DNA of 64,000 nucleotides. It comes from Octopus vulgaris. Lineage: Eukaryota. Below, piece by piece: positions 11,475 through 43,354 of this stretch (the first letter of the stretch is position 1; each line of letters begins with the position of its first letter). The translations under genes were made by a program, and so were the position numbers. The stretch is from contig OX597826.1 of assembly GCA_951406725.2 (NCBI GenBank), forward strand, positions 41,478,001 through 41,542,000. The letters are read 5' to 3'. Below the pieces are notes generated by a model. That model ran no database searches, was not told where the DNA came from, and saw only the letters and a list, made by a program, of their open reading frames with translations.

Positions 11475-11650
11475 AGTTAATATAGGATAAAATTTTTTTC
11501 GGGAAAAATTTTTTTTATCAATGGCCAGCATATCAAAAAATGCCTTTAAAGGTAAAATTTATACATAATTTACAAGATAAGGGCAGAAGAATCTTCTGCC
11601 CTTATCTTGTAAATTATATATATATAATTGTAAATTATCTTGTAAATTAT
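11475..11650 (-). mobile_element. (TA)n-flanked insert with structured terminus and 26-bp fold-back
   Basis: ATAATTTACAAGATAAGGGCAGAAGA / TCTTCTGCCCTTATCTTGTAAATTAT hairpin. The terminal motif is shared with 13122, 15125, 38040 and 43127. Confidence 0.6.
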
Positions 11651-11744
11651 ATATATATATATATATATATATATATATATATATATATATATATTTATAT
11701 ATACATAATGGTGTCATTGAGGCCATAATTTTTCCTCTCACACC

Positions 11745-11796
11745 GTCTCCGATCAAGGGACATTATTAATAAATATCCTAGAAACAGCTGTAAGAC
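11745..11796 (+). ncRNA. Hammerhead-like motif (variant core) in a (TA)n-flanked insert at 11707-11862
   Basis: gtct-CCGATCA-AGGGA...TCCTA-GAAA-CAGCTG-TA-agac: stem I gtct/agac, palindromic ACAGCTGT stem III, GTA triplet. G8 is replaced by C. Confidence 0.5.
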
Positions 11797-12079
11797 CTTC
11801 TATCTATAAATGCTCTAATATCTATACACCCTTGGTTTTTATCTTATTACGCAAAAAATTCTTATATATACATACATACATATATACATGTATACATATA
11901 CATATATATATATATATATATATATAGGTGAGAAAGTTGGTGTGTGAAAGCACATGGTTGGATGTATAAAAAATAGAAAAGAGTGAAAAAACTACAGAAG
12001 GCTTGTTTTATAAGGTTGAAGAATATATTTAAGTCGTTATGTTAGAAAAATGTTATAAAATTTTGTGATATATGTTGTT

Positions 12080-12376
12080 TGTTCCTTCTCGCTCCATGCC
12101 TGGCTCATAAGGGCCGGTTTCCCAGTTTCCTTGGCGTATAGGTTCCCCACCTGGACGGGACGCCGGTCCGTCGCAGGTGAGCTGCAAGAAGCAGGAGGAA
12201 AGAGTGAGAGAAAGTTGTGGCGAAAGAGTCAGCAGAAGTTCGCGATTACCTTCTGCCGGAGCCGCGTGGAGCTTAGGTATTTCGCTCATAAACACACACA
12301 TCGCCCGGTCTGAGATTCGAACCCGTGATCCCTCGACCGCGAGTACGCCGTTCTAACCACTAGGCCATGTGCCTCC
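12080..12376 (-). mobile_element. tRNA-derived SINE family R with intact head
   Basis: Minus strand reads TGGCCTAGTGGTTAG (A box) ... GGTTCGAATCTC (B box), followed by a non-tRNA body. Confidence 0.85.
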
Positions 12377-12427
12377 ACACACACACACACACACACACAC
12401 ACACACACACACACACACACACATGTA

Positions 12428-12795
12428 TATTCTTTTATTCTTTTACTTGTTTCAGTCATTTGACTGCGGCCATACTGGAGCACCGCCTATAATCGAAGAA
12501 ATCGATCCCAGGACTTATTCTTTGTCAAGCGATGTTGGGAGTCAAACACACACACACACACACACACACACACACACACACACACACACACACACACACA
12601 CACACACACACACATACACAAACACACACACGCACACATATATACGTCGGGCTTCTTTCAGTTTCTGTCAATCAAATCCGCTCATAAGGCTTTGGTTGGC
12701 CCGAGGCTATAGTAGAAGACACTTGCACAAGGTGCCACACAGTGGGACTGAACTCGAAACCATGTGGCTGTTAAGCAAGCTACTTACCACAGCTA
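12428..12795 (-). mobile_element. tRNA-derived SINE family M (internal microsatellite)
   Basis: Homologous to the 16716-17050 copy. Tail CAGTCAAATGACTGAAACAAGTAAAAGAATAAAAGAATA on the minus strand. Confidence 0.8.
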
Positions 12796-38999: not shown

Positions 39000-40212
39000 C
39001 ATCGGTGTGTGTGTATATGTATGTATATTTATTAATATTTAGCAATAGTAACAAAGTGACTCCTTGAGTTTCGTGCATTGGCACTTATCAAGTGTCATCG
39101 CGCGTATGCCTACAACAGTTACGTGAAGAATAACGAGTTTCGGCGCCACTTCAACATTCATTGAAATCAGGTTCTTCCCACCCGTAGCACAATCTTACGT
39201 TGGGTGAATGCACTTCATACACGAGGTACACTAATAAATAGGAGACCGGCTGAGGCTCCACGAACGGTACTGACCCCGGAAAATGTGGAGCGCGTCAGAC
39301 AAGCTTTAATATAGAGTCCAAATCTCTCTGCTCGGAGGTATTCCACTGAACTTGGCATCGGTAATCGATCGGTAAGGCGTATTTTGCATGATGACCTGCA
39401 TTTCCACCCGTACAAATTGGTCATTAGGTAACAGTTGAAATCATGGGACTACGCACAGTGGCTTAACTTCGCACGTTAGATGGAAGCAATTTTTGAGGCA
39501 AATGACAACCTCGTTTTGTTAATGAGTGATGAAGCTCATTTTCATCTCAATGACATGGTGAATCAACAGGACTGTCGTTATTGGGCTTTTGAAAATCTGA
39601 GGGAACAGCACGAAAGATCACTGCACAGCCCCAAAGTGATGGTCTGGTATGCTGTTGGGAAAGCTGCGGTCAATGATCCTTACTTTTTTTAATACAATAA
39701 GGAAAATGCTGCTATTGTGAACTCTGAGCGTTACATCGAGATGATAAACAACTTCTTTGTGTCTGAATTACGACAAAAACGTATGCTTATTCGACATGTG
39801 TGGTTTCAGCAGGATGGGGCGATGGCCCACACAGACAGAGCATCAATGGACGTTCATCCCTGGCATTCCTTTACCGTCTCGGCCCTCTGGTTTATCAATG
39901 TGTGGTTATTTCTTGCGGGGGAAACTCCAAGGCACGTGTGCATGCGCATAAACCCCGCACATTGGACGATTTGAAGGAAGCCCAAATCGAAAGAGCAATG
40001 CTGGAGAGAGTGGAGGCCAACTTCCAAAAACGCATTCATAAATGCATCAATGACAATGGACACCACATGATGAATGTTGTTTTCCCACGCTTGATTTTGA
40101 CAAATGCTAATTCAATACGAACACATTGATGTCAATAAAATTTGTTTGCAGCTAAAAATTAATGATTTTGTTAATTTTTCAAAAACCTACGTCCTCTCTG
40201 TCCCACCCTGTG
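39000..40212 (+). mobile_element. Decayed Tc1/mariner-superfamily (Tc3/rosa-like) element
   Basis: Motifs LHFHPYK, MSDEAHFHL, HERSLHSPKV, FQQDGA.AH and CINDNGHH, with stops and frameshifts. It ends CCACCCTG-TGTA. Confidence 0.85.
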
Positions 40213-40359
40213 TATGTATGTATGTATGCATTTATGCATGCATGTATAGATATAGACAGATAAATATATATTTTAAATATATTATACATACATACATACA
40301 TACATATATATATATATATATATATATATATATATATACACATATATATACATATATCG

Positions 40360-40542
40360 CCATGATAGATCGTTAACCACTACACACATTTTTTTCTCTC
40401 CTTGTTTTTTCTGTGTCCCTTTCTGTAGAAGAGCGTAGGCACGAAACGTAAAAGACTTTCTATTCCTGAGCGTTATACTAATACATCTGTTTGTTTTGTA
40501 CACCACCTGTCTTCGTCTTTTGTTTTTTCGTAAACTCTCCCT
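40360..40542 (+). mobile_element. Family B copy with hammerhead motif at 40419-40454
   Basis: cttt-CTGTAGA-A-GAGC gtag GCAC-GAAA-CGTA-aaag, with (TA)n flanks. Confidence 0.72.
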
Positions 40543-41599
40543 ATATATATATATATATATATATATATATATATAAAGGTATAAGGCCTGAAATTTTGTG
40601 AGAGACGCTAGCCGATTATATCGCCCCCCGTACTCAAGTGGTACATATTTTATCGACCCCGAAAAGATAAAAAGTAAAGTCGACCTAGGCGGAATTTGAA
40701 CTCAGAATGTGAAGACAGACGAAACGCCGATAAGCATTTTGCCCGGTATGCTAACGATTCTGCCGGCTCGCCGCCTTAAATGAATTAATAATAACGATAA
40801 CACGAGAACATATATTACATGGAAATGTATTAAAATAATGTCTTTCACCGAGTTTTTGTTACAAATTATCTACATATGCTTTCTCTGTAGCTAACCACCC
40901 ACAAACACACATACACACACACATATACACATACTACACACGTACGTACACATACACTCACACACATAAATACACATGTATACAAATACACACACATAAG
41001 CCAGCAGTAATATGGAAAACAAACATAAGAGTTTAATAGTTTCACAGAGTTGTAGCTTTAAAGATGTCACCCGAAGTGCTATACGAATACGACATTGTCT
41101 TTCTATAAGACCGACAAATAGAGAAATATCAATAGTTATACAAAAAATCGATATTATGAAGACAAAAAAAAATCAATTTTGTAGAGTGTAAAAAAAAAGA
41201 TAGAAAATTTAGACAGCTGTCGTTTCTTTTGTAACTTAAGTGATCACCAACGTAAATAACATGGTTGTTTTTGTGTGTGTGTATATATATACACACACAC
41301 ACATATATATATATGTATGTATGTATGTATGTATGTATGTATGTATGTATGTATGTATGTATGTATGTATGTATGTATATATATATGTATATATATTTAT
41401 GTGTGTGTTGTGTATATATATATATATATATATATTGTATATATGTATGTATGTATATATATATATATATATATGTATGTATATATATATATATATGTAT
41501 ATATGTATGTATGTATATATATATATATATATATATATATATATATATATATATATATATATATATATATATATATATATATATATATATATATATATA

Positions 41600-41857
41600 T
41601 TGGGTTGGGGCATAATTATTGCGGCTTTTTGTTTTCAACAAATTTTATTCAACAAAAACAATAAAAACATATAACAAAATCATCTTTAAATGATTATTGC
41701 GGAGCATATTCACCATCTACTTCAATTACTGCTTCCCATTTGCCTGGCAGACAGTCAAATTGTCATTTAAAGATGTTTTTGTTAAATATTGTTATTACAA
41801 TTTGTTGAATAAAATTTGTTGGAAAAAAAAAGCCGCAATAATTATACACAAACCCAA
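41600..41857 (-). mobile_element. Mariner-derived MITE
   Basis: ~58-bp TIRs TTGGGTTGGGGCATAATTATTGCGGC... / ...GCCGCAATAATTATACACAAACCCAA in (TA)n. The interior encodes a mariner C-terminus, LPGKWEAVIEVDGEY. Confidence 0.8.
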
Positions 41858-43354
41858 TATATATATATATATATATATATATATATACATACATACATAT
41901 ACATACATATGTATGTATATATACATAGATGCATATGTATATATACGTATATATACATGTATATATATATGTATATACACATAAATAATACATACACACA
42001 TACTATATATATATATACATACACACACACGCATAAACTATTCTCATATATATATGCGTGCGTGTGTTTGTGTGTGTGTGTGTATTTATATATGCCACTT
42101 TGCTTTATGTCGAACGAAGGAGAGAGGAGTGCTCAAAAATATTGTAGAAGATATGGGTTTCACTGAATCGCGTGGCGTGAAGCTCAAAAACTGTTTCATT
42201 TTCAATAAAAGAAAACAACAAATATAATATAAAATAATATAATATAATATAATATAATATATTATAATATAATATAGTATAGTATGATATAGTATAATAT
42301 GATATATATATATATATATATATATAGTACAAAGTAAGATAGGGGTTATGAATGTAAGCCACTATGGGATATCAATTATCCAATATACTGTTGGTAAAGT
42401 ACACAAATTCTTAATACATAAATGCTTTTAATTCATTTATTGCATTAAATGGGTGAAGGTAAAAAATAATTTTATCGTAAATTTATAATACAAATAAGAA
42501 AATGGAGAAACAAATTCATCTCGTTCATCAACTTACGGATATTACAAATATTAGTATAGCATAATATATATAGCATATATAGATAGATATAATATATAAT
42601 ATAATGTAATATAATATATATATATTTTTTATATATATATATATTATATATAATAATAATAATAATAATAATAATAATAATAATAATAATAATAATAATA
42701 ATAATAATAATAGTAATAATATATATATATATATATCACCGTGATTGACCAGGCTATCAGATGTTGCTACACATCGCTGGACACAATGCGCTTTGCATTG
42801 ATTTAGCCTTCAAATGACGTCACCCCGCTGGCTAAGCGAGCAGACCAATATGTATATATATATATATATATATATATATATATATATATATATATATATG
42901 TAGGTCCCGGGTTGAGTCGGGGTTTAACCACAGTAAATAAGGTACTCAATACATAGCAGAGTAAAGTAATTTATAAATATATATATATATCTAGGTCCCG
43001 GGTTGAGTCGGGGTTAACCACAGTAAATAAGGTACTCAATACATAGCAGAGTAAAGTAATTTATAAATATATATATATATATATATATATATATATATAT
43101 ATATATATATATATATATATATATATATAAGGATAAGATCGTTATTTAAAATACCAATCCTATCAGGTGGCCAGTATGTGAACAAAAACCTCAAAAGGTA
43201 ATTAAGGGTATCTAAGAGATACCATCATGCTTGAAATTACAGTCAAAACTTGACTCTAAAACCACATTAAATGTTCATACAGCACCAGTACCCAAAAAAT
43301 TTCCATATATATTCCACACGGGTTTTATTTACGTGTATTTTTATGTATATTTAT

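Follow-up and report, generated by a model that had tools for sequence, protein, structure and literature searches.

Five (TA)n-anchored inserts of Octopus vulgaris carry a doubled hairpin layout and resemble the 3' ends of Penelope-like elements

A stretch of 64,000 nucleotides of the Octopus vulgaris genome (assembly GCA_951406725.2, contig OX597826.1, positions 41,478,001 to 41,542,000 of the forward strand; hereafter the window, numbered from its first letter) consists of AT-rich animal DNA, dense in microsatellites, and contains five inserts, S1 to S5, that end against (TA)n arrays. The five ends are real and their likeness is above chance. With a probability of about 0.72, they are the 5'-truncated 3' ends (pseudo-long terminal repeats, pLTRs) of five related families of Penelope-like elements (PLEs), in which hairpins are predicted to position the start sites of reverse transcriptase (RT). 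A preliminary description of the window had located the five ends, and all five positions were borne out on re-inspection. It had also proposed an RNA or single-stranded DNA signal, possibly that of a PLE, and this proposal gained from three further observations: a hammerhead ribozyme in the S2 family, 5' copies in inverted orientation, and another 3' end at a fixed position. Together these support a PLE-like element whose signal is RNA of the minus strand. The proposal is refined here in three respects: the signal occurs twice per element, half of the motif is a strand of a long-range stem, and the fold-backs are the inverted pLTR already known from PLEs.

Results

Five inserts share the layout of their long ends

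Read on the minus strand, each long end consists of a T-run, RCT-x-CCRY(C)T, a hairpin, CT, AT-rich bases and (TA)n, as had been described. The hairpins are closed by G-R-T / A-Y-C, and 0-12 more AT-rich bases separate the CT that follows them from (TA)n. Fold-backs at the other end had been reported for three of the five inserts; they are present in S1, S2 and S3, where an inverted 5' copy adjoins the truncated sense part, and there is none in S4 or S5.

The hairpin of the long end is called outer here, to distinguish it from a second, inner hairpin presented below. The (TA)n target array of S1 (11346..11475) is followed by the sense part (11476..11591, minus strand; outer hairpin 11486-11519) and by the inverted copy with its stubs (11592..11650, plus strand; copy up to 11617). 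S2 has its array at 13083..13123, its sense part at 13124..13442 (minus strand; outer hairpin 13138-13174) and its inverted copy at 13449..13662 (plus strand). The corresponding parts of S3 lie at 15074..15126, 15127..15296 (minus strand; outer hairpin 15136-15161) and 15308..15379 (plus strand). S4 (38042..38240, minus strand; outer hairpin 38055-38098) adjoins (TA)n at 38022..38041, and S5 (43130..43310, minus strand; outer hairpin 43132-43164) adjoins an array at 43067..43129. The five inserts share a strand, a coincidence with a chance of 1 in 16 to which no meaning was attached. A likeness to the Sm site and hairpin of U7 was dropped, only two of the five T-runs fitting by eye.

An association with (TA)n had been predicted. 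A degenerate core of 13-14 nt, fitted to S1-S5 after the fact, matches five times in 128 kb (both strands) and adjoins (TA)n in 5/5 cases; as background, 9.5% of unmasked strand positions fall 30-75 nt before a TA run. The ends were also sought with a leave-one-out position weight matrix, which contained no TA term and whose block geometry was the analysts' choice, among 1,064 candidate sites made of a hairpin followed by CT. The held-out ends of S1 to S5 ranked 1, 2, 2, 1 and 2 of 1,064, and the sites that outranked them were solely one-base shifts of training ends. An unsupervised scan for G-C closed hairpins of at least 7 pairs, followed by CT and at most 17 nt from (TA)n, returned eight sites. 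Six belong to the inserts, namely four of the five long ends plus the points at which the inverted arms of S1 and S2 terminate; the other two are unrelated. The long end missed was that of S3, which has two stem defects. Folding alone was significant for S2 (z -3.5) and S4 (z -4.8). Of the 15 cells formed by the three closing pairs of the outer stem in the five inserts, 14 are paired, and one change affects both sides.

The preliminary description had expected a covariance model of the five ends to retrieve further family members. Scanned against the window, the model recovered all five training ends but nothing further (next best E 0.71). When metagenomes were scanned with a degenerate pattern, 84 loci in 44 of the 64 parts matched, and the same model matched once among them (E 0.8). 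No long stem occurs in the 84, the best having 7 pairs; about half of the rows are without a scored hairpin end, and the upstream T-run with RCT is absent by eye; lacking both long stem and T-run with RCT, these matches are regarded as chance. Rfam gave no match in the window at gathering scores.

The S2 family carries a type I hammerhead

The S2 family is present, and very abundant among read contigs, in public runs carrying four organism labels. No RNA run was among those listed for S2, an absence given no weight in either direction. Four runs were placed on 13124-13470 (11,928, 5,664, 1,274 and 466 contigs, a read depth that differs from copy number and was not used as such). Loose ends were limited to 30 letters; junction counts refer to the rows listed, beside which there were 148 others. 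In 4/4 runs, loose ends occur at 13433-13440, which is the fold-back point of the window copy (at least 70, 66, 14 and 6 contigs among the rows listed). Read on the minus strand, they supply one strand of stem I and the core CUGA-N-GA, where N is U, C or A. The remaining parts are in the window copy: stem II, extended by a long insert, then GAAA, the short stem III and the complementary strand of stem I (3' part of the hammerhead at 13349..13440, minus strand; predicted cut after 13357). The 5' core is missing from the window copy because of the fold-back, and is carried by the reads. These loose ends, combined with the parts in the window, identify a type I hammerhead in the S2 family and show that the sense strand of the inserts is the minus strand.

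Read variants agree with this fold: the commonest variant at 13351 restores stem I, and variants at 13376 and 13377 (not phased) fit the alternative stem II strands of the loose ends. One contig of run X1 spans a like fold-back junction, with 8 other letters. Core-only hammerhead searches used descriptors with a 7-17 nt spacer; the long stem II of S2 could have escaped published descriptors. A 24-nt S2 word had no match in viral contigs and none in prokaryote contigs.

Two 3' ends, each preceded by a hairpin

The inverted arms of S1, S2 and S3 do not reach the long end, and stop 89, 103 and 82 nt before it, at about 11565, at 13227 and at about 15209, respectively (short ends, minus strand). 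Aligned with the sense part over 214 columns, the inverted arm of S2 departs from it by 3 substitutions and 1 gap, and ends in (TA)n at 13661-13703. Loose ends with (TA)n were found at the same position, 13227, in three of the four runs (at least 14, 7 and 1 contigs among the rows listed in runs X2, X8 and X9), so the second end is a trait of the S2 family. The S2 tail, between the two ends, is not an open frame. The stubs at 11618-11650 of S1 are short and (TA)n-separated and all end at the inner (short-end) site, which is consistent with repeated starts there.

An inner hairpin lies 75-106 nt before the outer one in 5/5 inserts (11582-11601 in S1, 13239-13260 in S2, 15217-15238 in S3, 38161-38182 in S4 and 43207-43223 in S5, all minus strand). 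It is followed by CT (AT in the sense arm of S3) and an AT-rich spacer, and the inverted arms of S1-S3 stop just past it. Both ends come after a G-C closed hairpin, although little sequence is common to the two sites, and the spacer past the hairpins measures 2 to 17 nt. The S1 inner hairpin coincides with the fold-back centre and hence does not count as independent evidence.

A sixth family, on the plus strand at 10197-10533 and 19380-19742, likewise folds back and includes a complete hammerhead, whose core is at 19465. Its two ends lie about 140 and 222 nt beyond the predicted cut, compared with 130 and 233 nt in S2. Near the inner hairpin it is similar to S4 (p about 0.003, this pair being one of 15 that were tested), and it is without the shared motif. 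This family supports the PLE reading of the layout.

An enclosing stem around the inner hairpin

When the tails are folded, the RCTRG part of the motif pairs with the strand just before the inner hairpin. In this fold, half of what had been described as a motif is one strand of a long-range 8-bp enclosing stem. The best partner pairs at 8/8 positions in S2 (13181-13188 with 13262-13269) and in S4 (38105-38112 with 38184-38191), 81 and 79 nt away, with 1 nt between it and the inner hairpin that follows. Compensatory changes, altering both sides of four of the eight pairs, distinguish S2 from S4. Among 3000 dinucleotide shuffles, 1 (S2), 0 (S4) and 41 (S5) passed for stem plus inner hairpin, with thresholds taken from the observed values. 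The common S2 read variant at 13182 turns a U-A pair of the enclosing stem into U-G. In S5 and S2, the G-U pairs speak for folding as RNA of the minus strand. The 3' strand of the stem lies at 11526-11533 in S1, 15167-15174 in S3 and 43171-43178 in S5.

Discussion

Comparison with known Penelope-like elements

Comparisons with published elements refer to the accessible parts of the papers cited. An inverted 5' copy without the tail and an optional tail of 30-40 bp form the PLE layout (PMC8557442, PMC3846280), type I hammerheads are reported in PLE pLTRs (PMC4209133), and a (TA)n bias is among PLE traits (PMC8557442). PLEs make up 6.83% of O. vulgaris, in 190 families (PMC13282606). In vitro, reverse transcription by a purified anole PLE begins at a stem-loop, where two internal start sites flank the tail, and the main template is uncut RNA (PMC11167929). 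The inserts show these PLE traits: a hammerhead (in the S2 family only), 5' truncation with an adjacent inverted copy (in S1, S2 and S3), and an optional tail (in the same three). Because no RT or GIY-YIG gene is linked to them, membership is assigned on non-coding traits, and the clade and function proposed below are inferred.

As in canonical EN+ PLEs (Penelope/Poseidon; anole PAc, PMC11167929; Adineta Pen2a, PMC3846280), a hammerhead lies upstream of two alternative 3' ends, the inverted 5' copy is joined by a palindromic junction without the tail, the target is AT-rich, and a stem-loop occupies the start region. In contrast to these elements, both ends come after a G-C closed hairpin, the inner one within a long-range stem; initiation in PAc was mapped inside an AC-rich stem-loop (PMC11167929). 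In comparison with the same elements, S2 ends 130 and 233 nt past its predicted cut and its tail has no open frame.

Our leading guess for the clade is Hydra. Hydra PLEs (PMC8557442) share the (TA)n preference and a canonical hammerhead with S2, and by eye S2 is like most Hydra rows of File S2 in that stem II ends with A and a pyrimidine before GAAA; some Hydra ends have subterminal hairpins by eye. The first two traits are not diagnostic, since other clades have them too. The Hydra clade is further marked by RWK and DKT motifs and by a C-terminal EN lacking CCHH, protein traits for which the inserts offer no linked ORF. Hydra-1_Obim is by eye without the S1-S5 motif, and its end lies just about 40 nt beyond its hammerhead cut; the S2 hammerhead word is absent from the accessible PMC8557442 supplement, and S2 stem II, with its long insert, is unlike that of Hydra. 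The inserts may instead belong to Neptune or Nematis, which, as the S2 family does, bear hammerheads, a microsatellite bias being noted for Neptune (PMC8557442). Octopus Naiads (Naiad_Obim, Ovul, Omin) also have a (TA)n preference, inverted 5' copies, a tail and a T/G-rich 3' region. They are without canonical hammerheads, their published 3' ends are by eye without the S1-S5 layout, and six exact motif words are absent from the accessible supplement of PMC8557442 that contains them (line breaks could hide a word). Assignment to Naiad was rejected, as the S2 family carries a canonical hammerhead and the published Naiad ends are unlike.

No description of conserved structure at both PLE ends was found in the accessible literature searched; the fold in Fig. 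S2 of PMC11167929 could bear on this, and Repbase, Dfam and subscription papers (Arkhipova 2006) may list the families. The doubled hairpin signal with its enclosing stem and long tail appears to be undescribed; the class of element is known and abundant.

A possible start signal for reverse transcription

In the mechanism that we propose, which builds on the in vitro results of PMC11167929, a GIY-YIG endonuclease would nick (TA)n. RT would grip the RNA via the 8-bp stem over the inner hairpin, the CCRYU linker and the outer hairpin, and cDNA synthesis would begin beyond either hairpin, at a distance of 2-17 nt, where the A/U-rich spacer could pair briefly with the TA primer. The DNA contains two 3' ends 82-103 nt apart, and the gap between them corresponds to the PLE tail. 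An early stop of copying, followed by the joining on the 5' side of an inverted copy that ends at the inner site, would produce the structure present in the DNA. Because the sequence copied in S2 extends across the predicted hammerhead cut, its template was probably RNA that had not been cleaved.

By analogy, the RNA of these families might contain one conserved domain, composed of the enclosing stem, the inner hairpin, the CCRYU linker and the outer hairpin, that plays the part of the template boundary of telomerase. A stem with CU after it would set the start of this telomerase-related RT, two such stems would create the PLE tail, and the families would share a portable, sequence-free start signal for (TA)n. 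This proposal is tentative, and we think it somewhat more likely to be wrong than right. How PLE RT chooses internal start sites without target homology is an open question, one element having been studied in vitro (PMC11167929). Conservation of a structure at both start sites in diverged families indicates which mutations would be informative and would account for the tail. The structure also offers a route for classifying the numerous short (TA)n-flanked repeats that are still unclassified in genomes of this kind.

Counter-evidence and alternative explanations

Several observations weigh against the PLE reading and its hairpin signal. First, the whole comparison covers five inserts in one window. 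No RT or GIY-YIG Pfam match was found in the 150 longest of 237 filtered window frames, and the window contains no full-length PLE copy, in which the partial tandem arrangement and direct pLTRs of EN+ PLEs would be expected. No hammerhead core was found within the insert length of S1, S3, S4 or S5, and these four are assigned by architecture because the hammerhead is seen in the S2 family only. The tails of 82-103 nt are 2-3 times as long as the published 30-40 (PMC8557442, PMC3846280). Second, the hairpins are uneven: folding alone is weak for S5 (z -1.4), S3 (z -0.4) and S1 (z +0.3), the S3 outer stem has one mismatch and one bulge, and covariation of the three closing pairs at the base of the outer stem is not above shuffles (149/500). 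Third, the enclosing stem is incomplete outside S2 and S4. Only 5/8 pairs form in S3, with the 5' strand retained at 15340-15347 in the inverted arm; S5 has two equal-scoring partners (43226-43233 or 43276-43283, 6/8 each) and is ambiguous; S1 is truncated before the 5' strand, so the stem is absent there. RNAalifold on a MAFFT alignment of the five tails, which was out of register, predicted 0 pairs. Finally, in the sense arm of S3 the inner hairpin is followed by AT (CCT-like in the inverted arm), the inner end of S4 and S5 is a prediction because these inserts have no inverted arm, and the TA run of S4 is short and interrupted.

It is unlikely, if conceivable, that the inserts are PLE ends in which the hairpins are merely inherited structure (promoter, protein-binding or RNA-stability elements), pairing between the A/U-rich spacer and (TA)n setting the ends. 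The spacer does vary from 2 to 17 nt, and A/U-rich stretches alone provide microhomology with the TA primer. Moreover, families show weak upstream similarity (S2-S5 p about 0.01, S4-sixth family p about 0.003), and part of the layout could thus reflect common descent. However, other A/T-rich stretches of the same tails are unused as ends, and a G-C closed hairpin precedes both ends despite little common sequence.

We give still less credit to the idea that these are non-autonomous hammerhead elements (retrozyme-like or SINE-like) which never had an open reading frame (ORF) and use borrowed PLE machinery. They are very abundant and short and have no ORF in the window, and animal retrozymes have been proposed as derivatives of PLE pLTRs (bioRxiv 10.64898/2026.07.22.740005). 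Against this, S1-S5 contain no head-to-tail units, no end-to-start same-strand joint is among those listed, and the fold-back and tail match autonomous PLEs; either way, the same mechanism would operate at the ends. Non-LTR retrozymes as tandem units were rejected, 0/5 inserts being tandem and no end-to-start joint being listed, and would have to be present as monomers.

Ends of single-stranded DNA or DNA elements (Helitron-like, or a miniature inverted-repeat transposable element, MITE, targeting microsatellites), or a chance grouping of unrelated inserts, are very improbable: subterminal hairpins are typical of rolling-circle elements and 3/5 hairpins are weak when folded alone, but the leave-one-out retrieval, the hammerhead of S2 and the G-U pairs favouring minus-strand RNA in S5 and S2 argue against this. 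The Helitron 3' end has a hairpin about 10 nt before CTRR. Here CT comes directly after the hairpin and the ends are variable AT-rich spacers, unlike such an end, and Helitrons were rejected. Since the inverted arms stop 82-103 nt before the long end, there are no terminal inverted repeats; a DNA transposon or MITE with such repeats was discarded on this ground, S4 and S5 moreover having no inverted arm at all.

Other inserts and features of the window

Additional TA-flanked or fold-back inserts were observed. The insert at 30560-31190 is a fold-back with (ATT)n in both arms and belongs to a different PLE-like family; it has a canonical hammerhead (core at 30639, minus strand) and a partial copy near 31106 (plus strand). 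Immediately left of the S5 TA run, 42900-43066 comprises two tandem units of ~85 nt with (TA)n between them, each minus-strand end being a hairpin then ACCT. A TA-flanked insert at 42327-42570 (minus strand) has stacked hairpins, then CCT and an AT-rich spacer at its end; it has a short word in common with the S4 inner hairpin and was not retrieved by the model. The minus-strand end of another, at 11927-12080, is like the last bases of S4 plus the T-run, without a pairing arm. A further TA-flanked family occupies 37357-38030 and 11700-11880, with an inverted copy (37500-37560 versus 37960-38025), and is split by a 380-nt insert that is presumably Helitron-like.

The element at 41600-41857, which has terminal inverted repeats and lies within (TA)n, is one that we take to be a Mariner-like MITE. 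Decayed Tc1/mariner-like transposase fragments were found at 893-1201 (minus strand) and 2845-3159 (plus strand), with weak Pfam matches, and by eye at 39000-40130. Lastly, a C2H2 zinc-finger gene of KLF-like type has a long exon, containing runs of His/Gln, at 59222-60718 (minus strand).

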